Shown: piece by piece, positions 2,977 through 64,000 of the stretch
How the letters are laid out: the number at the start of each line of letters is the position of its first letter
Numbering within the stretch: position 1 is the stretch's first letter
DNA from: a bacterium
GTDB lineage: Bacteria; Patescibacteriota; Microgenomatia; UBA1400; UBA12108
DNA length: 64,000 nt
Assembly: GCA_021788365.1 (NCBI GenBank)
Contig: JAJYKS010000001.1
Span: 3,887 to 67,886, forward strand
Direction of reading: 5' to 3'
The notes under the pieces: model-generated
Seen by the model: only the letters and a program-made list of their open reading frames with translations
Databases searched by the model: none
What the model was told of the DNA's origin: nothing
Program-made: the position numbers and the translations under genes

Positions 2977-4628
2977 AGCCCCTTCGCTAGCTTTAGTGCT
3001 TTACGATGTGCACGGTGAAGAAGCTTGGTGGCGCCGGTGGTACTTTCAATCGCCAAAGTGGTAAGCCAGTAGGTGAGTTCGTTACCCTTGCCGCGAAGCG
3101 ACGCAAATAATGTTCGTGTTTCTTCGGTTGTCAGTTCTTTTCGCTTCCCTTGTAGCTCCCACAAGTAGACGTACGCCAATAGCGTCTGCGCTCCCATCAT
3201 GGCGGATAAGATGAGGCCATACATACCGTCTTTCCACCCCTCGGTGAGGAAGAAGCGGCGCATAAATTCACTCATGGGTTTCCCCAGCAGGTCGAGTGAG
3301 GTGAATTTCACCCCTTCGGTATTTAAGATGTTTGCGTACTCGCGGGGATACTCCACCATGTTCTTGACGACAAACTCCGACACCGTGTCGTAGTTGTGGT
3401 GGGCGAGATTTCCTGTTGCCGTTGCCGTGGTGCCGTTACCCTTTATAAAACCGGCCCGCTCGTGTACATCACCCGTGAACTGCACCATTTTGGGGCGGAA
3501 GAAGACAAGGCGATAATCGGGATACCAGTCGCTGTGCTCGATCCATTTCCCAAAGATTTGGTTCTTACGCGGGACTTTGACGCCGTCTAAGTAAATATCT
3601 TTAGCGAAAAACTGCAGTTCTTTGGCGAGTTGCTTCTCTACCACTTCGTCAGCGTCGACCATCAAGACCCAGTTGTAGGTGGCCACCTTCGACAGTGCAA
3701 AATTACGCTGCGCGGCGAAGGTATCCAGCTCGCGGGCAAGGATGGTAACTTTGGGAAATTTCTTTCCGCCATAGGCGGATCGGCCTATGGCCGAGGCTAT
3801 TGCCAGGGTCTTGTCCGTACTGCCCGAGTCGATTATGTAGATGTCCGATACCCAGGAAAGTGATTTGAGGCAGCTTTCCAGATCCTTTTCTTCGTTTTTG
3901 GTCAAAACAACGGCCGCAATTGTTGGCTTGAGCGTCTTTTTCTTCCATGAACTGGCCTGGAAGTGATAGGAATAAGAATCCTCTGCGGTCCCGAACTCGT
4001 AGCCTTTTTTGAGTGCGGCCTGCACGTAGAGATAGTCGTTTGACACGGCGGTACTCGTGCCAAACTTGCCGGCCGTGGGGTAGTGACCGAGTGCGTCGTA
4101 GTCTTCTCGCTTCTGCAGCATGGGGATAAAGAACCCATCCTCGACGAATCCTGTTGCTTTCCGCCCTTTGCACCAAGCTATGAACTCGCTCTCCTTAAAT
4201 TCCGAGGGGAGTACGCCAAAGTCTTTTTGGATGTTGGTTTTGTACACAGGGATGATCCCCGGCTCCACTAATCTGCCGGAAATGAGGCGTTTGGGTTGCC
4301 AATACTTTAAGAGATTACTGTCCCAGTGCGGGGCAAAATATTGGTCGTCGGTCGCGAATACTAGCCAGTCGGTCGTTGCGACTTCGGCGCCACGGTTCCA
4401 GTTCCCGTACGGCCCAAGATTGTCTTTGTTTACCCACGCCTTGACCCCATGTTTTTTGCAGACTTTGAGAATATCCTGATTTACTTTGCCGGTGTTCATG
4501 TCTGGGTCTACGACAATCACGAATTCCACTTCGCAATCGCTGTTCTTCTTGATACTTTCTATGGCAAGGTCCAATTCTTCCCAGGCGTTGACAGTGGGGA
4601 TAATGACGCTCACTTTTTCTTTTTTCAT
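2973..4628 (-). CDS. Two-domain GT2-like glycosyltransferase
   Basis: 551 aa. N-terminal 'VSVIIPTVNAWEEL...FVIVVD...DWLVFATDDQYF' and second module 'AAVVLTKNEEKDLESCL...YIIDSGSTDKT' each resemble a GT2 catalytic domain. 4-nt overlaps with both neighbours. Confidence 0.65.
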   Translation of the reverse strand: MKKEKVSVIIPTVNAWEELDLAIESIKKNSDCEVEFVIVVDPDMNTGKVNQDILKVCKKHGVKAWVNKDNLGPYGNWNRGAEVATTDWLVFATDDQYFAPHWDSNLLKYWQPKRLISGRLVEPGIIPVYKTNIQKDFGVLPSEFKESEFIAWCKGRKATGFVEDGFFIPMLQKREDYDALGHYPTAGKFGTSTAVSNDYLYVQAALKKGYEFGTAEDSYSYHFQASSWKKKTLKPTIAAVVLTKNEEKDLESCLKSLSWVSDIYIIDSGSTDKTLAIASAIGRSAYGGKKFPKVTILARELDTFAAQRNFALSKVATYNWVLMVDADEVVEKQLAKELQFFAKDIYLDGVKVPRKNQIFGKWIEHSDWYPDYRLVFFRPKMVQFTGDVHERAGFIKGNGTTATATGNLAHHNYDTVSEFVVKNMVEYPREYANILNTEGVKFTSLDLLGKPMSEFMRRFFLTEGWKDGMYGLILSAMMGAQTLLAYVYLWELQGKRKELTTEETRTLFASLRGKGNELTYWLTTLAIESTTGATKLLHRAHRKALKLAKGL

Positions 4629-6145
4629 ATACGGTGCTCCTCTTTTTCTAGCGTGGCTTCAAGTTCGGCGGCTTTGTTGCTTTTTCCAATCATCCCCCAC
4701 CAATTTACAAATTCGACTCTAATCCGCTCACGATCTATGGCAAGGATGACCAGTGTATATGTTACCACCCCTATAACAACGGTGGCTACCAGTGTCACCA
4801 GGTCGTGCGTGATCACCCTATTGGCGAGATAGGTGACCGCGGACATGACGAGTGCGGCATACAGCGGCTTTTTAACCGAGTTCCATGTTTCTACGTGTAC
4901 CACCCTATTCATTGCGTAGACGACGAACGGTAGGGTCGTGTAGGTAATAATGAGGCCTGCAATCGCGATACCCACAAAGCCGTAGCGGTGGATGAGCGGG
5001 AGCCCTAGTCCCCATGTCATGGCCGTGTAGACAACCATAAATAGGAGCACAATCTTGGGACGACCCAGGGCGTAGAGCGCGTTGGTGTATGTCGTCGTTA
5101 CAATAATCGGGAAGGCTCCCGCCAGGAAAAGAAGAAGTGTGGGCAGGGCCGGCAGCCATTTGGCGCTCTTGTCGGCGTACAAATACTGCAATATGCCAGG
5201 TGCGACTATGAGCAGCCCCGCGATCATCGGCATGTAGATGTACGCCATGAACGATACCGATTTTTCGATCCAGCGCTTGATACGCGGTTTATCATGCTGG
5301 ATGCGGGAGTAGGCGGGGAACATAACACGAGAAACAATATCGATGATCTCCATGGGACGTGTGGCAATATTTTCTGCGAGGGTCACGAAGCCAACTGCGG
5401 CAGGCCCAAACCAAAAGGCAATGACGGTCGGGGTTATGTTGTCTTTGAGGAGGGACAGCGCGGAGTTGAGCTGGTACGGGACGCCGAAATGCAGAAGCTC
5501 GTGAGCGGAGGTGCGCGAGATGTGCCACCCAATTTTCCATGGACGTAGTAGGTTCAAGGTCACCGCGCCTACAACGCTACGCACTACAACGGCGATGACC
5601 AGACTCCACACACCATAGCCAGAAAGCGCCATGACGACGGCGATCGCGTCGTACGTCAACGATTCGACGATGTCGGGGATTATGAGTATGTCGAATTTGA
5701 GCTGACGCTCGAGCATAATTGAAGGAATAGTCTTGAATGACGTCACAAACAGGGAAAGCGAGAGCACGCGGATGAGCCAGACACCTTGTGCTCCAAGGTT
5801 ATACGCGCCAGCCAGGTATGGTGCGGCGATCCATGCGGCAGCAAGGAGCGCAGTCACTAAAAGCTGTTGGATGGTAAAGGTAGTCTCCGCATCTTCCTGG
5901 GTAATCTCTTCTTTCTTTTGGATAAGGGCAGCACCGAAGCCGACGTCAGAGAAGAACGAAAGGAAGGTAAAGACGATAAAGCTGACAATACCAAAGATGC
6001 CATATGCACTTGTCGACAGGGCGCGAGCTAGAAATATGACGGCGACGGTGTCAAAAACTTTAAGGATGAGCCTACGAAATGTTAGGGTAAATACCCCCTT
6101 GAATGCGCGAGATTTAAGATGTTCTAGATCAATTGATTCTGCCAT
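4625..6145 (-). CDS. Wzx-like oligosaccharide/polysaccharide flippase (MOP superfamily, polysaccharide biosynthesis protein)
   Basis: 506 aa, about 12-14 transmembrane segments. N-terminus 'FKGVFTLTFRRLILKVFDTVAVIFLARALSTSAYGIFGIV...AALIQKKEE' is typical of Wzx/RfbX family proteins. Confidence 0.75.
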   Translation of the reverse strand: MAESIDLEHLKSRAFKGVFTLTFRRLILKVFDTVAVIFLARALSTSAYGIFGIVSFIVFTFLSFFSDVGFGAALIQKKEEITQEDAETTFTIQQLLVTALLAAAWIAAPYLAGAYNLGAQGVWLIRVLSLSLFVTSFKTIPSIMLERQLKFDILIIPDIVESLTYDAIAVVMALSGYGVWSLVIAVVVRSVVGAVTLNLLRPWKIGWHISRTSAHELLHFGVPYQLNSALSLLKDNITPTVIAFWFGPAAVGFVTLAENIATRPMEIIDIVSRVMFPAYSRIQHDKPRIKRWIEKSVSFMAYIYMPMIAGLLIVAPGILQYLYADKSAKWLPALPTLLLFLAGAFPIIVTTTYTNALYALGRPKIVLLFMVVYTAMTWGLGLPLIHRYGFVGIAIAGLIITYTTLPFVVYAMNRVVHVETWNSVKKPLYAALVMSAVTYLANRVITHDLVTLVATVVIGVVTYTLVILAIDRERIRVEFVNWWGMIGKSNKAAELEATLEKEEHRI

Positions 6146-18729: not shown

Positions 18730-19695
18730 TTATTTGTTCCGATAATACTCAATAGTCTTGCTAAGACCGGCCTCAAAGTCAATTTTTGGTTCCCAGCCGA
18801 GCAAATTTATGGCTTTTGCTATATCAGGCTTGCGACGGGTAGGATCATCCGGGAGTATTGGCTTTTTCACTAGCTCCAGTTTTTCACCGGAGATTTTCTC
18901 GGCGAGTTCTATCGCCGACAAAATCGTGAATTCGCCGGGATTGCCGAGATTCACCACTTCGCCCACCATTTTTTCATTCTGAAAAACCCGAAAGATACCT
19001 TCAACGAGGTCGTCGACGTAGGTAAAAGAACGGGTTGCAGAGCCATCCCCGTAAAGGACAAACGGTTTTTTGTGTACAACACTGTCTACGAGATTTATGA
19101 GAAAGCGGCCGTCATCGAGGCGCATACGGGGGCCATAGGTGTTGAAGATACGAACAATCTTAATTTTCGTCCCGCGCGATCGGTAATAGGCAAACGCCAG
19201 GGCTTCCATAAAGCGCTTACCCTCGTCGTAGCAGCTCCGGACACCTGTCGAGGAAACGTTGCCCCAGTAGGTTTCTGGTTGTGGGTGGACTGCGGGATCG
19301 CCATATACTTCGCTTGTCGAGGCAAAAATGATGGGGCAGCCGGCAGTGGTTGCCAGATCCAGCATGTTTTTGGCACCGACACTATTGGCGAGCATGGTCT
19401 CCACCGGGTGATTGACGTAGGAGTCGGGAGCCTCGGGGTTTGGCGAGGCGGGCGAGGCAAAGTGGAGGATAGCGGTGAGAGATTCTAGGAGAGAGATTTT
19501 AGATTCTAGGGGAGTAGTTACGTCATGCTCCAGCAGGGTAAAGTGGGGATTGCCGACAAGGTGGGTGGTGTTGTCGCGGGAGCCACTCGAGAAATTGTCG
19601 AGACAGACGACGTCGTATCCCTCCTGTATAAACCGATCACACAGGTGGCTACCGATGAACCCTGCTCCGCCGGTTATCAAAATTTTATTCATCAT
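18730..19695 (-). CDS. UDP-glucuronate decarboxylase (UDP-xylose synthase)-like SDR
   Basis: 321 aa. 'KILITGGAGFIGSHLCDRFIQEGYDVVCLDNFSSG' and 'VRIFNTYGPRM' match UXS/ArnA-decarboxylase family hallmarks. Neighbour of ugd. Confidence 0.7.
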   Translation of the reverse strand: MMNKILITGGAGFIGSHLCDRFIQEGYDVVCLDNFSSGSRDNTTHLVGNPHFTLLEHDVTTPLESKISLLESLTAILHFASPASPNPEAPDSYVNHPVETMLANSVGAKNMLDLATTAGCPIIFASTSEVYGDPAVHPQPETYWGNVSSTGVRSCYDEGKRFMEALAFAYYRSRGTKIKIVRIFNTYGPRMRLDDGRFLINLVDSVVHKKPFVLYGDGSATRSFTYVDDLVEGIFRVFQNEKMVGEVVNLGNPGEFTILSAIELAEKISGEKLELVKKPILPDDPTRRKPDIAKAINLLGWEPKIDFEAGLSKTIEYYRNK

Positions 19696-19725
19696 AAAAT
19701 TTAATTTTCAATTTTCATTTTTTCC
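19696..19725 (-). promoter_or_regulatory. AT-rich AATTGAAAATTGAAAATT-type upstream element (UXS gene)
   Basis: Minus strand ...TGAAAATTGAAAATTAAATTTT directly abuts the ATG (19695). No SD. One of four near-identical elements. Confidence 0.35.
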
Positions 19726-20738: not shown

Positions 20739-21641
20739 TTACTGTTTTCTCCAAAAATCTAATACATTTATTATAGTCTTGTCTAGGGGTATTGTGGGTG
20801 TCCAGCCGGTTGCCGCTACAAATTTGCTATTGTCGGCTACTAGAATTGGCACGTCGGCAGTACGCTGGTTCCCGACATCTATACGTATAGGTATATCTAT
20901 TTTGGTAACTTTGCGGAAGAGTTCGATGACGTCGTGGATGCTGACCCCATGCCCTGAGCCTATGTTGTATACTTCGCCACTCTTACACTTCTCTCCGGCC
21001 AAAATATAGGCATCAACCATGTCTTCCACGTCGGTAAAATCCCGTATCGTGGCTGTATTACCGACAACTATTTCAGATATTTCACCTCGCTCGGCACTGA
21101 CAAACTGTTTTGCAAGGGCCGGGATCACGAAATTTGGCGTTTGACCAGGACCAGTGTGGTTGAACGGGCGCAAGATCACTATATCCATGTTGTATGCGAG
21201 GTAATATTCCTGTGCCAGGAGTTCTTGTGTTACTTTGGATACAGCGTACGGATTCAGGGGGCGCTGCGGACACGTTTCTTTTATCGGCGTATCGACAGCT
21301 GCGACTAAGCCGTACCCATTTGCTGAGCAGATCGCGACGATGCGGGTTCCTGGCGCGTGGAGTCGCACGGCTTCGAGTATGTTGTATTGCAACACACTGT
21401 TTGCGGTCAGGATTTGCGGCGCATTTCGCTCACTCCCCTCAACCACGGAGAGCGCCGCCAGCTGATACACAACGTCTGGCTTTGTCTCTTGTATAAGGCG
21501 CTCGGTGTAGGCAAAATCGGTGAGATCGGTTGTGGGACTATACACGGATTGACTGACGGTATATCCCTTTTTCTCAAGTTTCGCCACCAAATGTTTTCCT
21601 ACGAATCCCCCTGCGCCGGTGACCAAAATTTTATGCGTCAT
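20739..21641 (-). CDS. rmd: GDP-4-dehydro-6-deoxy-D-mannose reductase (Rmd-like NAD-dependent epimerase/dehydratase)
   Basis: 300 aa. '[15 protein letters not shown]', '[10 protein letters not shown]', 'FVIPALAKQ', 'YNIGSGH' parallel Pseudomonas Rmd motifs. Adjacent to gmd. Confidence 0.6.
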
Positions 21642-21643
21642 AA

Positions 21644-21680
21644 AATTTAATTTTCAATTATCAATTTCCAATTTTCAAAT
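21644..21680 (-). promoter_or_regulatory. AT-rich AATTGAAAATTG-type upstream element (rmd gene)
   Basis: Minus strand TTGAAAATTGGAAATTGATAATTGAAAATTAAATTTT immediately followed by ATG 21641. Possible -35 TTGGAA / -10 TAAATT and a leaderless start. Confidence 0.35.
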
Positions 21681-44405: not shown

Positions 44406-44843
44406 ATACTGTCGCCAATGTTAATGTACTAACCCACGCCGCTACGCAAGCGGCGGGGTTTAATGGACGTTGTCCATTAAAAAGTGAAGAGTAAGATTGC
44501 AGTATCAAACTACTCGTTTGATCATGCGTCTCGTCCGAAGGACGAGCCGTCAATCACCATAATAAATTATGATGTTGGCGGACGGGTTAGCTAAACACTT
44601 TGCAGTGCGTACACTTCCCGCCGATAACCTGGTGGTCTCCCAGGGATCTATCGTCCACCCGAAGGTGGACAAGGAATCCTTATCTTGGGGTATGTTTCCC
44701 GCTTAGATGCTTTCAGCGGTTATCATGTATCAACGTAGCTACTCTGCGATGCGCCTGACGGCTACAACAGAAACACTAGCGGTTGACTCACTCCGGTCCT
44801 CTCGTACTAAGAGCGACTCCCCTCAAGATTCCAACGCTGGTAA

Positions 44844-44886
<43 letters not shown>

Positions 44887-44914
44887 ACGTAGCGCTTTAA
44901 TGGGCGAACAGACC

Positions 44915-44945
<31 letters not shown>

Positions 44946-44958
44946 CGCTGAGCCGACC

Positions 44959-45250
44959 AAAAACCTGATGTAGATAGAAATTATTGGTTGCGTCACGTAT
45001 TACTACGTGTTTGGACTATATCTTTATCACGGATATTCTTGTATTCCACGAATATCGTATGAATGTTGGCGTATGAATGCAGTATCTTCCGCATTCTCAT
45101 GCTGCAGGACGCAGCAATCAGTCTCTACGGGGTCTCATACTATCTATTTCTAGAAGGTATTCGACTTCCCACGGGGTTGACCTTAATTGTTCAAGTTAAG
45201 GCTTTCTCCGTTATTAGCCAAATTTACCCTCGACATGTTTGGGTGTTGTC
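44959..45250 (-). other. About 290 nt ORF-less insertion in 23S domain V (between ...ACCUCGAU and GUCGGCUCA, E. coli about 2500); candidate degenerate group I intron or expansion segment
   Basis: Eye-alignment to the E. coli 23S: exon sequence CTACCTCGATA | insert | GGTCGGCTCAGCGCATCCTGGGGCTG. The insert has no ORF of 60 aa or more. Confidence 0.4.
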
Positions 45251-45753
45251 TATCGAGGTAGCGAACTGCACCGTCGCTGTGGACGCTCAGGTGCAACTAC
45301 TCTGTTATCCCCGGAGTAGCTTTTATCCGATAAGCCCGGCACCTCCCACGAAGTGCACGAGGATCACTAGGTCCGACTTTCGTCTCTGCTTGACTTGTAG
45401 GTCTCACAGTCAGGCATCCTTTTGCCCTTGCACTATCATTCCGATTTCCATCCGGAATTAGGATACCTTTGCGCGCTTGCGGTACTCTTTAGCAAGCAAC
45501 CTCCCCAGTTAAACTGCCTCCCAGACAGTGTCCTCTCCCACGATCCAGTGGGATAAGTGAGAAACTCACGTTTCGAAGAGTGGTATTACATGATCGGCTT
45601 GCGCCTCCCACCTATGCTACACAGTCAAAACATAAATCTCAGTGTCAAGGTACAGTAAAGCTTCACGGGGTCTTTTTGTCCTGTTACCAGTAGGCCGCAT
45701 CTTCACAGCCATTTCAATTTCGCCGAGTCCCCCCTCAAGACAGTCTCGAAGTT

Positions 45754-46400
<647 letters not shown>

Positions 46401-48560
46401 TAACCATAGAACAGTTATAGTTACTGCTGCCGTTCACCGGGGCTTCGATCAAAGGCTATCCCGAACAAGTCGGGGTTACCCTCTCAATTAACCTTCCGGC
46501 ACTGGGCAGGCCTCAGCCCGTATACGTTGACTTGCGTCTTCGCACAGACCTGTGTTTTTGTTAAACAGTCACTTCGAGTTATTTATCTGCGTTCCATACA
46601 TTGATACAAGTACCAACATACAGAATAGGCATCTCCCTAAGTTACGCCTAGTTGATTTGCCGAGTTCCTTAAGGGAGGTTCTCTCGCTCACCTTGGTATT
46701 CTCTACCAGTTCACCTGTGTCGGTTTGCGGTACGGATATAGAACATTCTCGTTGCGAAGGTTTTCTTGGATCTAGAAAGTGGGCAGAGTCACCGCGGCCG
46801 AAACCGCAATTCCCCATCACGCCTCGGGTCATAACGCCGGCTACGGATTTGCCAATAGCCAACTACCTTAACGCTTGGACGCCAATTCAATAAGACGCCC
46901 TGCTCTTCCCTGACCGTCACTCCCCAACTAATAATGAACGCCCTATAGGACCGGAATATCAACCGGTAATCCATCGGCTACGCCGGCATTACACCAGCCT
47001 CACCTTAGGGCCGCCTCACCCCACGTCGACGAACGTTGCGTGGGAAACCTTGAACATTCGGTGTGGAGGATTCTCACCTCCATCTCGCTACTCATCCCGC
47101 CATTCTCACTTCTAACCGCTCCACCGCAGCTTACACTGCGACTTCACCGCTGTTAGAACGCTCCCCTACCAGTCATCTCGAATAAATTCGAGATAAATCC
47201 GCAATTTCGGTACATAGCTTGAGCCTCGATGAGTCTTCGGCGCCACTATCCATCGACTAGTGAGCTGTTACGCTTTCTTTCAAGGATGGCTGCTTCTGAG
47301 CCGACCTCCTAGCTGTTTATGGACAATGACTTCCTTGAACCACTTAGCTATGATTTAGAGACCTTAATTGGCGATCTGGGGTGTTTCCCTTTTGTGCCTG
47401 GAACTTAGCTCCCAGGCGCTGACTCCCGAGATAAACATGCGCAGTATTCGGAGTTTGATAAAGTGAAGCGCCTTGCGACGCCGCACCTTTTCAGTGCTCT
47501 ACCCCCACCCATGCATTACTCGAGGCTATACCTAAATATATTTCGGGGAGAACCAGCTATCTCCGGGTTCGATTGGTATATTGCCTCTAACCACAAGTCC
47601 TCCAAGACTTTTGCAGCAGTCACTGGTTCGGCCCTTCCCCCAATTTTACTTGGGGTTCAGCCTGCTCATGGTTAGCTCACTCCGGTTTCGGGTCTTGGCC
47701 ACACTGCTTGACGGACTATTCATCCTCGCTTTCACTACGCCTCCGTGACGATATCACTTAGACTAGCAGTATAGGCAAACTCGACGGGTCATTCTTCAAT
47801 AGGCACGACATCATCCCTTGCGGGACTTTGTCTGTTTGTTAGCACACAGTTTCAGGTACTATTTCATTGGGTGTCTCACCCTTCTTTTCACCTTTCCCTC
47901 ACGGTACTCGTTCACTATCGGTCATATTGTGTATTTAGCCTTACCCCGTGGTCGGGGTAGATTCCGCAGGGAGTTTGCCGTCTCCCAACGTACTCAGGTG
48001 CCAAATTAACGTTAGCTTGATTTCGTATACGAGATTTTCACTCTCTATGATCACCTATTCCACGGTGTTCTACTATCTTGCCAACATCGTATATCTGGTC
48101 CTACAACACCATAATAAATTATGGTTTGGGCTATTCCCTGTTCGCTCACCGCTTACTAAGGGAATCTCATTCGATTTCTTTTCCTTCGGTTACTTAGATG
48201 TTTCAGTTCACCGAGTTACCCACCCTAGATAAATCCAGGGTTCCGCACTATTGCTAGTGCAGGGATTACTCCATTCGGACACCGCCGGGTCACAGGATCG
48301 AGACTCCTCACCGACGACTTTCGCGGTCTTGTGCGTCCTTCTTCGGCACAATATGCCAAGGCATCCACTGTATGCTTTATTTGAGTAGCTTGATACAAAA
48401 TTCAATTCAATTCAAATTTTAGATGCTTTTCCTACTCTTCACTTGTTAATGTGCAACCTCTCGATTTTACTCGAGGTCATCAGGTATCTTGCGATACTTG
48501 AAAGACGAGAGCTTGAAAGCTCAGTTTTGCATTACTGAACTTTCAAACATGTCGTTTGTG

Positions 48561-60047: not shown

Positions 60048-61091
60048 TTAAGAGAGCAACTTGAGCTCGGCTTGGATAAATCCATCGAGGTCACCATCTA
60101 GTACTGCATCGGCACTCGACGTCTCGTATCCTGTTCTCACGTCTTTTACCAGTTTGTAGGGGTGCAGCACATAGGAACGGATCTGATTACCAAAACTTGC
60201 CAGCTTGTGTTCACCCCGCTCTTCGGCTAGCTCGCGGCCCTTTTTGTCTTCTTCGATTTCCCATAGTTTGGCTTTGAGACGCGCGAGGGCTTTTTGACGG
60301 TTGCGCTCCTGATAGCGCTCCTCGGTACAGACAACGGCTATGCCGGTTGGCTTGTGAATGAGACGTACTGCTGTCGAGACCTTGTTCACATTTTGGCCGC
60401 CGTGTCCCCCTGCGCGGAAAAACTGCCACTCCAAGTCCTCGTCTTTTACCTGGACATCCGCATCCTCCTCCTCAACGGCTGGTGTTACCTCTACAAGTGA
60501 GAAACTGGTCTGGCGGAGGTTGTCGGCGTTAAAGGGTGAGAGGCGTACCAAACGGTGGGTTCCCGACTCGCGTTTTAGCATCCCGTACGAATTCTTGCCC
60601 TTGAAGCGAACCGAGACGGATTTTAACCCCGCCTCGTCTCCCGGCGTCTCTTCCAATACTTCGTAGCCCCACCCCTGCCGTTCACCGTAGCGCATATACA
60701 TGCGATAGAGGATACCCGACCAATCCATGGCCTCGGTGCCACCTGCACCAGCGTGAATACTCAGAATGGCTTCGAGGCCGTCATAGCGCCCCGAGAGGTA
60801 TGTCGCGAGCTCGAGCTTGCCCAAGGCCGATTCGGCGATGGCCGTGTATTTGTCCACGTCCTCACCAAGCTCTGCGGCAGTCTCCGCGTCGCCGATTACC
60901 CCCTCGACATGTTTGACACTGTCTAGGGTTTCGTCTATTTCTGACAAGCGTTGGCTTTTCTTTTGTGCGTCCGGACGACCCCAGAAATCACCCTCGGCCA
61001 TCTCGGCGAGGAGCGCGTTTTTTTCCACCGATAGATCGGCGAGACGTAGTTTGGTTCTTATCGCGTCTAAGCGACTCTGAAAATCGATCAT
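60048..61091 (-). CDS. prfB: Peptide chain release factor 2 (no programmed +1 frameshift site)
   Basis: Start [25 protein letters not shown] at ATG 61091. 'SPF' tripeptide (RF2-specific) and '[21 protein letters not shown]'. The N-terminus is collinear with E. coli RF2 through the position of the usual CUU-UGA-C shift site. Confidence 0.9.
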
Positions 61092-61368
61092 GAGCGTATT
61101 GTAACAGCCTATAGACACTAGGTGTAGAATTTTCCCATGGTCAATGCCGTGAGTGAGAATATGCATGGTAAGCCACCGGGTTTTTATCTTGGGTTTTATG
61201 GTACCAAAGAAGGTGACCTGATTGGTGGTACATTTATTCCACTCGCCGGTCCTGAGGATACACCAGATAGTTTTGTGCTAGGAACGGCCTCAACGATGGC
61301 GGTGGTTGCATCGCTTGTCGAATGGGATGGTACGAACCTGTCCCCTGTAGATACGTAAGCTATAGAGA

Positions 61369-61436
61369 GATTTTTTTCACTCGGTCGATATTCTCTTTAT
61401 CTGGACCTGTACCTTCGATCCCGGGGACTTCGAGGA
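61369..61436. repeat. 68-bp direct repeat, copy A (duplicated nfo 3' end fragment)
   Basis: Identical to 62557..62624 (GATTTTTTTCACTCGGTCGATATTCTCTTTATCTGGACCTGTACCTTCGATCCCGGGGACTTCGAGGA). On the minus strand it encodes ...LEVPGIEGTGPDKENIDRVKKISL*, the Nfo C-terminus. Confidence 0.8.
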
Positions 61437-61461
61437 AAAGTAACTGACTTACCTGGAAGCA

Positions 61462-62496
61462 TTAAACTGTGATCTCAATTTTCCCAGGAATGTTTACACT
61501 ACCAAACATATCAAACTCTTTGGCACCAAGCTTCTTTAGTAGATTCATGTCATTTTCAGCCAGGTCTGGCCTTCCGATTAGCGTTTGATTGGTCTTATCC
61601 ACTAAATTATACATGCTCGAAGATACTGCTCCCGTAAATTTATACCTATTGTCATCGGAATATATGCTCATGATCCTTGCCGAGTCTTCGCTTGAGAGGC
61701 CAAAACTTTTAAGCGTTTTTTCGGCCATATCATGAGATCTGTAAAATTGGTCGAACATCGTATCTGCAACTTTTCCTGTTGCTTCTGCAGCTTTTTCATC
61801 CAGGCCCATTCCAAAATCTAATTGCCAATAGTATCTATCTGTCGCAGTGATGCTTAATCCTTGCTCGAATGCAACACGTTCTAAATACTCGTCTCTAGAG
61901 ACAATTGTTGCTTCTGTTGTACGAAGCGTATATTTTGCCCCCCCAAACGCATTATAATTTTCCTCTGAAAGACTTAGCCATTCCCGAGCGTCTAGGCCTA
62001 CTTCTAGCCCCGTATCGCCTTCCATCTGTCTCAATGCCATCTTAGTGAATCTATCGTACATTTCGGGGGGAATTTTCTTTTGACCACTTACATAATCTCT
62101 TATATTGGCTATCGCTGTGGATATTAATACTCCAACAAAAGCCTCCGGATTGGTTTTTGCTGGTTTTTCCAACAAGAAAGAAATGTCAAAAGGCCGACCA
62201 TCACCGTATAAATAATGTTCCATTGTCAGGCCGGCACCACCAAGCCCCATCTCTTTACTATATTTAGCCGTAGTTTCTGCAAATAGCCAAACCATAGCCA
62301 GTTTTCGTGAATCGAGTATTCTTTGTGGATCTCTACTCATTTCGGCACTAGCTAGTTCCTTTATTACTTTTAAGCCGTTAATAACATGAGGATCTCCTGC
62401 CATTTTTTCTGCTTGGATGCCTAAGAACGCGGCGCCTACAGCTAGGCTACTTACCTTTAAGAAATCTCTGCGTGAAAATTTTTTTGTTTCTGACAT
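61462..62496 (-). CDS. Tat-signal-peptide secreted protein of unknown function
   Basis: 344 aa. N-terminus 'MSETKKFSRRDFLKVSSLAVGAAFLGIQA' is a twin-arginine signal. No recognised catalytic motif. Sits inside the repeat-flanked 1.1 kb segment. Confidence 0.65.
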   Translation of the reverse strand: MSETKKFSRRDFLKVSSLAVGAAFLGIQAEKMAGDPHVINGLKVIKELASAEMSRDPQRILDSRKLAMVWLFAETTAKYSKEMGLGGAGLTMEHYLYGDGRPFDISFLLEKPAKTNPEAFVGVLISTAIANIRDYVSGQKKIPPEMYDRFTKMALRQMEGDTGLEVGLDAREWLSLSEENYNAFGGAKYTLRTTEATIVSRDEYLERVAFEQGLSITATDRYYWQLDFGMGLDEKAAEATGKVADTMFDQFYRSHDMAEKTLKSFGLSSEDSARIMSIYSDDNRYKFTGAVSSSMYNLVDKTNQTLIGRPDLAENDMNLLKKLGAKEFDMFGSVNIPGKIEITV

Positions 62497-62544
62497 TGGT
62501 AGAATTCTATCTTATCTGCGTCAAAATATTAATAGGAATACCTG

Positions 62545-63390
62545 TTAGTTCTTGCAGATTTTTTTCACTCGGTCGATATTCTCTTTATCTGGACCTGTAC
62601 CTTCGATCCCGGGGACTTCGAGGAGCAGGGGTAAGGATGCGAGGCGGGGGTGATTAATCAATCGCTTCAATCCTTCGCTACCGATGTAGCCATCGCCAAT
62701 ATTTTGGTGCATGTCGTGAGCGGAGCCCAGTGGTGTTTTGCTGTCGTTTAAATGCAGTACGTCCAATTTGTCCCAACCTATGTATTTTTCGATATCTTTC
62801 ACCCACATCTCGAGACCTGCCTCGGTCACAAAATTGTAGCCTGCCTCGAACGCGTGAGCAGTGTCTAGACAGATTTTTAGCCTGTCGGATGTAACTGCGG
62901 AAAAGATATCGGCAAGTTCAGGCAGCGAGCCAATTTTGCCTTTTTGACCGGCAGAATTTTCGAGGATGAGTACGGAGCCATTTGGTGTTGCATCCAGCAC
63001 TTCTTTGATTACCGTTATTACCTGATCCTTTACCACCCTCCACCCGCGACCCTGATGGGAACCTATGTGGAGGATAACACCCGCCGCGCCGATTGCTGCG
63101 CCGTTCGTCATATCCATGATGAGCGCCTTCTTCGATTTCTCCAGAAGCTCGGCGTTGTCAGATGCGAGGTTGGTCAAATACAATGCGTGGATGTATATAG
63201 GTCGTAGGTCACGGATCATAGATTGCTCGCGAAAGGCCTCCGCAACCTTTGTCGGATATGGTGTTCGTGCCCACATGCGGGGAGAGCCGGCAAAAATCTG
63301 CATGCAGTTGCCCCCAATCGCGATAGTATTTTCGATCGCGTTTTGCAGGCCACCTGCTGTACTGACGTGTCCACCTATTCGGCGAGTCAT
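62545..63390 (-). CDS. nfo: Endonuclease IV (AP endonuclease, TIM-barrel)
   Basis: 281 aa. 'HVSTAGGL...ENSAGQK...LDTAHAF...DVLHLND...' metal-ligand blocks of the Nfo family. SD AAGGAG 7 nt upstream. Confidence 0.9.
   Translation of the reverse strand: MTRRIGGHVSTAGGLQNAIENTIAIGGNCMQIFAGSPRMWARTPYPTKVAEAFREQSMIRDLRPIYIHALYLTNLASDNAELLEKSKKALIMDMTNGAAIGAAGVILHIGSHQGRGWRVVKDQVITVIKEVLDATPNGSVLILENSAGQKGKIGSLPELADIFSAVTSDRLKICLDTAHAFEAGYNFVTEAGLEMWVKDIEKYIGWDKLDVLHLNDSKTPLGSAHDMHQNIGDGYIGSEGLKRLINHPRLASLPLLLEVPGIEGTGPDKENIDRVKKICKN
62557..62624. repeat. 68-bp direct repeat, copy B (authentic 3' end of nfo)
   Basis: Identical to 61369..61436. Encodes the last 23 codons or so of Nfo. Confidence 0.8.
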
Positions 63391-63894: not shown

Positions 63895-64000
63895 TTACTC
63901 GTAGCGGAGAGCTTCAATGGGACTGAGCTGTGCAGCTTTCCTCGCTGGGAACACGCCAAAGACGATTCCTGTTGCTAGGGACACGCCAAAGGCAAGGAGG
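63895..64000 (-). CDS. C-terminal end of an FtsX/MacB-type ABC transporter permease (partial; N-terminus beyond the window end)
   Basis: Manual translation ...[34 protein letters not shown] matches the conserved C-terminal helix and tail of MacB/LolE/FtsX-like permeases. Stop TAA at 63895-63897. Confidence 0.45.

Follow-up and report, generated by a model that had tools for sequence, protein, structure and literature searches.

Introduction

Integron gene cassettes and Xer-dependent pdif modules are single-gene modules that lack a recombinase of their own, the enzyme being encoded elsewhere. Campbell-type insertion-duplication, in which circular DNA enters a chromosome by homologous recombination, serves as a gene-disruption tool in Bacillus and Streptococcus. 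A cis-mobilizable element (CIME) is what is left of an integrative element after decay has removed its integrase and transfer genes but spared attL and attR (PMC5704250). At Rhs, CDI and T6SS effector loci, C-terminal displacement yields orphan modules and has been proposed to proceed via homology-facilitated illegitimate recombination (PMC5361080). Finally, elements of the IS1634/IS1549 group generate long direct repeats of variable length (8–514 bp) upon insertion (PMC2266710).

Here we analyse a 64,000-nucleotide stretch of bacterial DNA (the window) in which foreign DNA with a single gene interrupts the 3′ end of the DNA-repair gene nfo. The locus resembles a CIME in that direct repeats containing the target's 3′ end bracket foreign DNA, the target is intact and there are no recombination genes inside: one repeat copy completes nfo, the other is an orphan tail, and the insert holds an ORF with a Tat signal and no integration or transfer genes. 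It differs from a CIME in that the cassette is only 1.1 kb long, with one gene, and the 69-bp repeats are pure host sequence. Moreover, the nfo site has no known parent element or cognate integrase, and no integrase-bearing parent element at this site was found in 20 other ORFs of the window, in the nfo–prfB gaps of relatives or at 151 related nfo loci. Integron cassettes and pdif modules are likewise gene-sized mobile units without a recombinase of their own, but the cassette described here has neither an attC-like hairpin nor a pdif-like site (its ORF is followed by a mere 25 nt, and the repeat and its flanks fold no better than shuffled sequence; z from −0.16 to −1.17), and the repeats on either side of it are directly oriented stretches of host coding sequence.

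Anatomy of the nfo locus

Repeat and DNA searches identify a 69-nt direct repeat, R, with 100% identity between positions 61368–61436 and 62556–62624 (neither copy is assigned a strand) and a start-to-start distance of 1188 nt. R is the sole long perfect direct repeat of the window, and none like it is expected by chance (100 dinucleotide-preserving shuffles). A perfect repeat of 68 bp, starting at 61369 and 62557, had been noticed in the preliminary description; it is confirmed, and is one base longer at the low side. Copy 1 (62556–62624) is contiguous with the nfo ORF and encodes LEVPGIEGTGPDKENIDRVKKI, and copy 2 (61368–61436) is an orphan 3′ fragment of nfo. The borders of R are sharp around 1,119 bp of inserted, unique DNA (61437–62555, minus strand), which has a GC content of 0.41 compared with 0.46 for the repeat copies; both copies are identical to the host nfo tail, as a target-site duplication would be. 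R has no special secondary structure when its fold is compared with shuffled sequences (z −0.16), and it contains no recognisable recombinase site.

The nfo gene, the 344-aa cargo ORF and prfB all lie on the minus strand. nfo (62545–63390) encodes an intact endonuclease IV of 281 aa (Pfam AP_endonuc_2, 9.7e-36), and its homologues at 70–83% identity bear the source name deoxyribonuclease IV. The last 26 codons of nfo consist of repeat copy 1 and three codons supplied by the cassette (CKN), followed by the stop, and the present C-terminus reads DRVKKICKN. Within the insert, 59 nt precede the cargo ORF and 25 nt follow it. The first 59 nt comprise the 11 nt that complete nfo (GC AAG AAC TAA) and a spacer of 48 nt containing a promoter-like site. 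The junctions of the occupied site read nfo–R–GCAAG on the left and ACTTT–R–CTCTATAG on the right. Identity between the two copies ends at 61360–61367 (minus strand), where the displaced nfo end, probably the ancestral one, has its last codons (S and L) and stop. Together with 61368–61436, this segment reads LEVPGIEGTGPDKENIDRVKKISL followed by a stop, in agreement with the earlier observation that the orphan copy still encodes an Nfo C-terminal peptide. The 268-bp spacer before prfB contains no more nfo remnants.

The orphan nfo end lies tail-to-tail with orf73 (61137–61358, plus strand), a small antisense ORF. A homologous antisense ORF of 81 aa occupies the same place in the relative L140 (BLASTP 3e-8), where the intact nfo is arranged tail-to-tail with it just as the orphan copy adjoins orf73 in the window. 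Judging by this shared gene order, orf73 marks the native right-hand flank, which the insertion left unchanged. The C-terminal peptides point both ways: nfo of L099 ends in LSL, with codons homologous to those of the orphan end, and nfo of P0054 ends in LLCKG, similar to the current end. Since the peptides alone are ambiguous, it is the synteny of orf73 and L140 that leads us to regard the orphan copy as most likely the ancestral nfo end. The distal copy, previously taken for the real end of the gene, is its functional end now but probably not its ancestral one.

The cargo gene and its family

The cargo gene (61462–62496, minus strand; ORF and profile searches) encodes 344 aa with an N-terminal twin-arginine signal (SRRDFLK), which scores 21.9 bits with NCBIfam TIGR01409 (cut-off 16.7) and 20.6 bits with Pfam TAT_signal, slightly below the cut-off of 22.7. 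It is the one ORF of at least 60 aa with a family signal in the insert, and searches of Pfam, NCBIfam, PHROGs and PDB sequences returned no family match beyond the Tat signal; the earlier description likewise named a Tat-secreted protein as the sole cargo. A sigma-70-like promoter match (TTAATA-17 nt-TAGAAT; 62504–62532, minus strand) lies just upstream of the gene. This is a consensus match only, and the candidate is weak, since 4.1 such matches would be expected in the region and three occur. The GC and GC3 values of the cargo gene are 0.41 and 0.35 versus window means of 0.50 and 0.55 (GC3 of the 47 other window genes, 0.55 ± 0.05). Both are the lowest among the 48 window ORFs, and the gene is compositionally foreign.

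Homologs of the cargo form 38 clusters among 1.8 billion representatives, with an export signal in every case, and are found in at least six genomic contexts. Residues His94, Gly98, Gly100 and Asp220 (H94, G98, G100, D220) are invariant across the family and are all present in the window protein. Of two AlphaFold models, one was of low quality (pLDDT 60) and the other good (pLDDT 84.6), the fold matches of the latter being weak. Colicin M-like bacteriocins, which are marked by the ColM catalytic fold and a DxYD(x5)HR motif, were among the comparisons made for the protein. It is a candidate secreted effector. DNA homology among the family members begins some 50 nt before the ATG and ends at the stop codon, and the mobile unit of the family has tight, gene-sized borders. 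Searches of viral contigs and of phage and plasmid records found neither the cargo nor R.

The nfo site in relatives

The release factor 2 gene prfB (60048–61091, minus strand) is a conserved neighbour downstream of nfo in the family, and relatives carry it directly after nfo, uninterrupted. The nfo–prfB gap is variable among relatives, where it can hold unrelated inserts, among them a VTT-domain protein gene, an IS200-like gene and uncharacterised ORFs. An empty site had been proposed as a check on the insertion. There is no species-level empty site in public collections: scans for nfo across genome and metagenome contigs reach at best 72–73% amino acid identity. In a search of 5.8 billion proteins, the nfo allele ending in KKISL is absent on record (next best, 83%), and the 100%-identity cluster of nfo has a single member. 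At 151 other nfo loci we found neither the tail duplication nor the cargo at this site. Since none of the 151 has an orphan tail, the nfo 3′ end is not a recurrent or commonly used att site. The low GC and GC3 of the cargo, the uninterrupted nfo–prfB order of the relatives and the displaced tail adjoining orf73 demonstrate that foreign DNA was genuinely inserted into the 3′ end of nfo. The insertion is recent.

Search for a recombinase

As already stated in the preliminary description, there is no recombinase gene between the repeats. An integrase is also missing from the 20 other window ORFs tested and from the nfo–prfB gap of every relative. The repeats are at most putative attL and attR sites of a site-specific integrase. 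A target-site duplication explains two fully host-type copies around a foreign cargo as well as a copy carried on attP does. The anatomy of the locus, its compositionally foreign cargo, the ancestral gene order kept by relatives and the recombinase-free state of the cassette are established.

The recombinase closest to nfo, a large serine recombinase, lies about 9.5 kb upstream, outside the window. A block syntenic throughout the family, MacAB-up139, separates it from nfo: the order MacA-MacB-up139-nfo-prfB is found in dozens of relatives, from which the genes of the recombinase's island are absent. To our knowledge, large serine recombinases leave no long repeats. On the basis of the missing island, the intervening syntenic block and the mismatch with a long repeat, we ruled out this enzyme as the agent.

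A cargo homologue at dnaB

At the L091 locus, a homologue of the cargo (56% amino acid identity) lies between dnaB, which precedes it, and a second dnaB 3′ end. The tails are 75% identical, with differences at 17 of 66 nt and 3 of 22 residues that are mostly synonymous. When neutral decay was simulated with 13 or 17 random substitutions, so few residue changes were obtained in 0 of 20,000 cases; with only 8 substitutions placed, P was 0.03. This pattern indicates that the second tail evolved under purifying selection and that both tails diverged as functional genes. The small number of residue changes implies that the incoming DNA carried its own copy of the target's tail, and a target-site duplication, judging by the same comparison, cannot explain the pair. 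L091 differs from the window in its diverged repeats and in the presence of a third fragment, and it may represent a different process.

Origin of the insertion

The best explanation, which we hold tentatively and with less than even confidence, is that a small circle with an nfo tail integrated by a single crossover and that the recombinase acted in trans. Circular DNA of about 1.19 kb, bearing the cargo gene and 69 bp copied from the nfo 3′ end, would have recombined once with the chromosomal nfo across the 69-bp segment (Campbell-type integration, or insertion-duplication). The crossover would place one 69-bp segment on either side of the insert, rebuild nfo with three terminal codons supplied by the insert (CKN and the stop) and move the old nfo end (SL and the stop) 1.19 kb downstream, where it would still adjoin orf73. 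As the cassette lacks a gene for the enzyme, the latter would have acted in trans, either as a site-specific recombinase from another part of the genome or from the population, or as the host's homologous recombination system. Recombination between the repeats could remove the cassette again and restore the ancestral nfo. We infer the circular intermediate, the single crossover and the responsible enzyme. Such an event would account for the perfect 69-nt repeats with sharp borders around 1,119 bp of foreign DNA and for the native right flank, in which orf73 faces the orphan end as its counterpart faces nfo in L140. It would also leave the target intact and its old tail displaced, as observed for integrative elements that target 3′ ends and for insertion-duplication. 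In addition, the incoming DNA at L091 brought its own dnaB tail, and the cargo family's mobile unit is gene-sized with tight borders.

The product has the same form as that of Campbell insertion-duplication, a homology segment, heterologous DNA and a homology segment in direct orientation, and is likewise reversible via the repeats. A length of about 69 bp is reportedly near the minimum for Campbell integration in Bacillus subtilis, as Khasanov et al. are said to have found in 1992. However, insertion-duplication is known from the laboratory, with engineered plasmids, and there is no obvious natural source for a circle with a foreign gene and 69 bp of nfo; that such a gene should share a circle with a perfect copy of this host's nfo tail speaks against the model. 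Integration of a circle is also at variance with the failure to find an integrase in the cassette, the 20 other window ORFs or the relatives' gaps, with the absence of an orphan tail from the 151 other loci and with an R that has no special secondary structure or recognisable recombinase site, and the process at L091, with its diverged repeats and third fragment, may not be the same. We consider it a long shot that Microgenomates harbour a small family of recombinase-less single-gene cassettes (a promoter and the gene for a Tat-exported protein, possibly a toxin that degrades cell-wall precursors) that move from genome to genome, carry their own copy of the target's tail and integrate, with replacement of the 3′ end, into nfo or, in L091, dnaB through host recombination after DNA uptake. 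If true, this would be a homology-addressed mobile gene unit so far undescribed.

A single illegitimate insertion that duplicated 69 bp of the target is, in our view, rather unlikely. A break staggered by nicks 69 bp apart could have captured a 1,119-bp fragment and been filled in on both sides of it, or replication could have jumped to foreign DNA as its template and come back 69 nt behind the departure point. Identical host-type copies around foreign DNA (GC3 0.35 versus 0.55) are what a target duplication predicts. The lack of a nearby recombinase among the 20 window ORFs, a site unused at the 151 other loci and a variable nfo–prfB gap with unrelated inserts in relatives are all consistent with a single event. 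A variant would invoke a transposase acting in trans with long target duplications, like that of IS1634 or IS1549; bacterial elements with direct repeats of 8–514 bp are documented (PMC2266710), and in both cases the inserted element is flanked by duplicated target sequence tens of base pairs long. Unlike these elements, the cassette lacks a transposase gene, its terminal inverted repeats are not significant (at best 9 of 10 aligned bases with one gap, 11 columns; P = 0.16), and its ends recur nowhere else in the window. Furthermore, random capture would seldom yield such tight, gene-sized borders, and the analogous L091 pair cannot, on the evidence of its tails, be a target duplication.

Displacement of the 3′ end by homology-facilitated illegitimate recombination during natural transformation seems quite improbable for the window. 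Linear donor DNA in which nfo and the cargo were adjacent would have anchored by homology in nfo, and an illegitimate join would have linked its far end to a point 77 nt before the stop of the recipient's nfo, creating the orphan tail. An intact gene followed by new DNA and an orphaned 3′ end is the architecture proposed for T6SS and Rhs loci, where an incoming 3′ end supplants the resident one and leaves it downstream as an orphan (PMC5361080), and the L091 dnaB locus, with its diverged tails that both evolved as parts of functional genes, fits this scheme well. Rhs, CDI and T6SS loci, however, swap variable toxin tips within one gene family, whereas in the window an unrelated, complete gene is inserted and a housekeeping tail is duplicated in identical copies. 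Tails from different lineages are found in L091 (75% identity) but not in the window (100%), where the identical 69 nt would require a conspecific donor with a homologous downstream flank too. With such a flank, an ordinary double crossover would have inserted the cassette without a duplication, and the donor's own acquisition of the cassette would be left unexplained.

The chance of an assembly artefact, in which two populations, or nfo and a separate element sharing 69 nt with it, were misjoined, is very small. The source genome is metagenome-assembled and the repeat collapses in a k=31 unitig graph, in which the integrated form looks the same as a circle plus an empty site; Logan unitig L003 (window 61407–62585, the insert with 30 nt of R per end) breaks 30 nt into R at both ends. 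Nevertheless, the structure is identical over 21 kb in two separately assembled contigs that span both repeats, NCBI DAHXIW010000001.1 (580 kb) and ENA k141_1441074 (118 kb). The latter was built with 141-mers, longer than R and its flanks, and single reads therefore cross both junctions, which largely removes the concern over assembly raised at the outset. An old native arrangement, with a resident gene inside an ancient duplication of the nfo tail, has only the bare presence of the repeat in its favour and a negligible probability, being refuted by the 100% identity of the copies, by the GC and GC3 of the cargo, lowest of the 48 window ORFs, and by the 151 other nfo loci, which have neither duplication nor cargo here and no orphan tail, so that the ancient duplication envisaged in the preliminary description is excluded.

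Implications

The routes by which genes pass between the tiny CPR/Patescibacteria genomes are poorly understood. These bacteria have few plasmids, conjugative elements and integrases, and DNA-uptake genes are common in them. The nfo locus represents a clean, recent acquisition of a single gene, with intact junctions, in an uncultivated Microgenomates-type bacterium. It bears on whether genes are gained and lost via small circles and short homologies or via dedicated mobile-element machinery. Because the cargo family is very rare, always carries an export signal and occurs in at least six contexts, it is a useful tracer of such gene traffic as well as a candidate secreted effector.

Two copies of the nfo 3′ end flank a foreign gene

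The repeat R, a 69-nt direct repeat with 100% identity between positions 61368–61436 and 62556–62624, was recovered by repeat finding and by a mismatch-tolerant pattern search. The preliminary description had recognized this perfect repeat but made it one base too short (68 bp). No match of this kind is expected by chance, no other long direct repeat of the 64-kb window is perfect, and as a single strand R shows nothing unusual in its fold. Two neighbouring genes of the polysaccharide cluster share a 70-nt direct repeat with 83% identity (19652–19721 and 21598–21667) across their 5′ ends and the AT-rich sequence upstream; it looks like paralogous gene starts with a common promoter region.

The endonuclease IV gene nfo (62545–63390; Pfam AP_endonuc_2, 9.7e-36), the 344-aa cargo ORF (61462–62496) and the release factor 2 gene prfB (60048–61091) all lie on the minus strand. 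Copy 1 of R belongs to the intact nfo ORF, whose product now terminates in ...DRVKKICKN*. Copy 2, together with the adjoining 8 nt (61360–61367), encodes ...LEVPGIEGTGPDKENIDRVKKISL* and is an orphan, as first described, because no Nfo-coding sequence lies upstream of it; its end is 268 bp from prfB. The 1,119 bp between the two copies consist of 11 nt that complete nfo, a 48-nt spacer containing a weak match to a promoter, the cargo ORF and a 25-nt tail. The cassette ends do not form significant inverted repeats (P=0.16), and their sequences do not recur in the 64-kb window.

The insert is foreign DNA and its flanks are native. With a GC content of 0.411 and a GC3 of 0.348, the cargo ORF is the lowest of 48 window ORFs (means of the remaining 47, 0.504±0.025 and 0.548±0.046, respectively), and R has a host-like GC content of 0.46. 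The gene block MacA-MacB-up139-nfo-prfB is common to about 50 relatives fetched from genome and metagenome collections (labelled Woesebacteria or Microgenomates; nfo 60–73% identical). The preliminary description proposed seeking an empty site in related genomes. At the family level the uninterrupted arrangement is present, nfo and prfB adjoining in about 21 of these relatives (−4 to 25 nt from nfo stop to prfB start), but no empty-site allele (...KKISL) is on record, since the next most similar nfo has 83% identity and the cluster at 100% contains a single member; the collections hold no closer relative.

Within the family, the nfo–prfB gap varies from −4 to 1,444 nt (L013, L024/L117, L025/L100/L103/L118/L121, L029 and L101). 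Inserts in the gaps of relatives include a VTT-domain membrane protein gene in antisense orientation, an IS200-like Y1 transposase gene accompanied by one for a HAD hydrolase, an ORF with weak IS66 similarity and ORFs of no known kind; these gaps contain neither an integrase nor a duplication of the nfo tail. In locus L111 (about 4001–4874), nfo is split by an early stop (...GSLSEL*), with the remainder in a separate 88-aa ORF, which represents a frameshift, a pseudogene or a sequencing error.

The orphan copy is most likely the original end of nfo

The C-terminal peptides are by themselves ambiguous and cannot identify the ancestral end, because those of locus L099 (LSL*) and protein P0054 (LLCKG*) point in different directions. 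Beside the orphan tail lies orf73 (61137–61358, plus strand), a 73-aa antisense ORF whose homologue in locus L140 (BLASTP, 3e-8), an antisense ORF of 81 aa, is likewise placed between nfo and prfB. The window ORF has no Pfam match and is a small conserved gene of a kind that annotation may miss. Both in the window and in L140, the antisense ORF stands tail-to-tail with an nfo stop, and the orphan copy is therefore in the ancestral position. The orphan is most likely the original nfo end, and the new end, CKN*, came from the insert. The distal copy, initially taken for the real 3′ end of nfo, completes the gene now but most likely did not do so originally.

No recombinase accompanies the cassette

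The cargo ORF alone shows a family signal in the cassette, in agreement with the initial observation that no integrase lies between the repeats. None of 20 other window ORFs of suitable size that were compared encodes a recombinase; they encode glycosyltransferases, sugar-nucleotide enzymes and the like. In the sequence covered, the window plus a further 8.5 kb, the closest recombinase is a large serine recombinase of 514 aa, encoded past the window's edge some 9.5 kb upstream of nfo (L001 1–3200, about 6.7–9.9 kb past the window end at 64000). Its gene extends past the locus edge and adjoins four small ORFs without assigned function, one of which has weak HTH/terminase-small-like matches. We rejected this recombinase as a part of the cassette: its neighbouring genes are missing from relatives, and the intervening MacAB-up139-nfo block is conserved. 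Since the recombinase and all four small ORFs are absent from relatives, they probably form a separate integrated element. Large serine recombinases are not known to leave long repeats.

Elsewhere in the window, the 23S rRNA gene (44559–48381, minus strand) spans 3,823 nt versus 2,925 nt for the model. A 133-aa ORF within it (45886–46287, same strand) has a LAGLIDADG-type motif (WWIVGFVDGEGCF) and is probably an intron-borne homing endonuclease; such enzymes are common in CPR rRNA genes.

The cargo family occurs in differing genomic contexts

The cargo family is tiny, with 15 members among 5.8 billion proteins and 38 when 1.84 billion cluster representatives were searched with a profile; a Tat signal is present in 20 of the 28 members aligned. 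Homologues of 45–58% identity occur in differing contexts, in host genomes that all have 34–38% GC. In five loci (L008 7927–9040, L009, L010 856–1966, L177 and L178), the homologue lies just downstream of tRNA-Lys(CTT) and begins 1–135 nt from its 3′ end; this is probably the native place of the gene. Compared with L008 and L010, L177 and L178 have the tRNA–cargo pair in the opposite orientation with respect to the adjacent SAM-methyltransferase gene. Other homologues are found between a sigma-factor gene and a transketolase gene (L093), upstream of greA (L094), after dnaB (L091), and between large serine recombinase genes and tRNA genes (L006 7538–9506 and L007; ERZ25039499 / ERR12037365). 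At the DNA level, these loci are homologous from about 50 nt 5′ of the ATG as far as the stop codon, and the relocating unit is therefore gene-sized. Comparison of the loci thus suggests a family that moves between genomic contexts.

Perfect 99-nt inverted repeats enclose the 1.77-kb segment that contains the L006/L007 homologue. The surroundings of this segment contain several further long inverted repeats (100–121 nt), large serine recombinase genes (two complete, one fragmentary), and genes for tRNA-Lys, tRNA-Glu and tRNA-Gln; the region may be invertible or a much-rearranged mobile region. A conserved non-coding element of about 92 nt with stem-loop potential (CCTGCCCTGCACA...TGTGTAGGGCAGG) lies downstream of the homologue in L006 (8967–9058) and L094 (1078–1169), and another of about 90 nt, also with stem-loop potential, lies upstream in L006 (7724–7814, recurring at 5730–5820) and L175 (about 55–145). 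Both elements are absent from the window cassette.

A second locus of like architecture

Locus L091 (1960–3427; Logan SRR22387768) follows the same plan as the window, with an intact gene, a cargo-family gene and a duplicated gene tail. An intact, intein-containing dnaB is followed by a third short tail fragment (2092–2163, ending ...RDSKHKQ*) that abuts the dnaB stop, then by a cargo homologue (56% identical) and a second dnaB 3′ end. The latter, inside which this short contig ends, is 75% identical to the first in nucleotides, mostly with synonymous differences: 17 of 66 nt and 3 of 22 residues differ between the two long tails. When neutral decay of an orphan was simulated with 13 or 17 random substitutions, none of 20,000 runs gave so few residue changes; with only 8 substitutions placed, P was 0.03. 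This paucity of residue changes indicates that both tails evolved as parts of working dnaB genes and that one arrived with the cassette. L091 looks like a case of serial 3′-end displacement.

Origin of the insertion

Three processes can yield an intact gene followed by foreign DNA and a duplicated tail. In the first, which we consider plausible but somewhat short of an even chance, a circle carrying R would have crossed over once, reciprocally, with chromosomal nfo, through either a site-specific recombinase acting in trans or homologous recombination. Such a crossover accounts for the sharp borders, the rebuilt nfo, the displaced old end and the analogue in L091, but no integrase was found, nfo does not recur as an att site, and it does not account for a circle joining a foreign gene to a perfect host nfo tail. 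The repeats had been described as a classic footprint of site-specific integration; that idea survives, with the same reservation, in its general form of a single crossover with a circle.

Rather unlikely, although it is the simplest account of both R copies being identical host sequence, is a single illegitimate insertion event that duplicated 69 bp of target, whether by staggered-break fill-in, template switching or a transposase in trans. Long target duplications are documented for IS1634 and IS1549 (PMC2266710). Neither the tight cassette borders nor L091 would be explained. Homology-facilitated illegitimate recombination following DNA uptake, a process put forward to explain orphan modules of T6SS and Rhs loci (PMC5361080), is improbable here. 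It fits L091 well but the window poorly: identity of R would make the donor a member of the same species, from which clean recombination at either side would be expected. Direct repeats mediate deletion of the DNA between them by recombination; whatever its origin, the insert should be deletable via the two 69-bp repeats, 1.19 kb apart, restoring the ancestral nfo.

An assembly artefact, raised at the outset as a possible explanation, is very improbable: two contigs, NCBI DAHXIW010000001.1 (580 kb) and one from ENA assembled by MEGAHIT at k=141 (118 kb), reproduce the structure with every base identical across 21 kb, and single reads span both junctions of the ENA contig, since a 141-mer exceeds R plus flanks. 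A Logan unitig (SRR13170411) equals window 61407–62585, i.e., the unique insert with 30 nt of R per side, which is the outcome required of a k=31 graph at such a repeat; it confirms the sequence and would look the same for the integrated form and for a circle plus empty site. A native, ancient arrangement, likewise considered initially, has next to no chance of being correct, as 155 loci combining an nfo homologue with sequence downstream of it were compared and a second nfo tail occurs in only 4, all from the window's own genome, and in none of the 151 others.

The nfo cassette has the structural features of CIMEs, decayed integrative elements that retain attL and attR (PMC5704250). In the one trait of ancestry open to a test it departs from them, because no integrase-bearing element uses the nfo site in the 151 related loci. 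Laboratory insertion-duplication and 3′-end displacement in polymorphic toxin loci are among the closest known kinds. By analogy, the nfo cassette would work like a minimal integrase-less integrative cassette, as a candidate member only. The chief reason for following it up is L091, where a member of the cargo family sits in the same arrangement at a different housekeeping gene.
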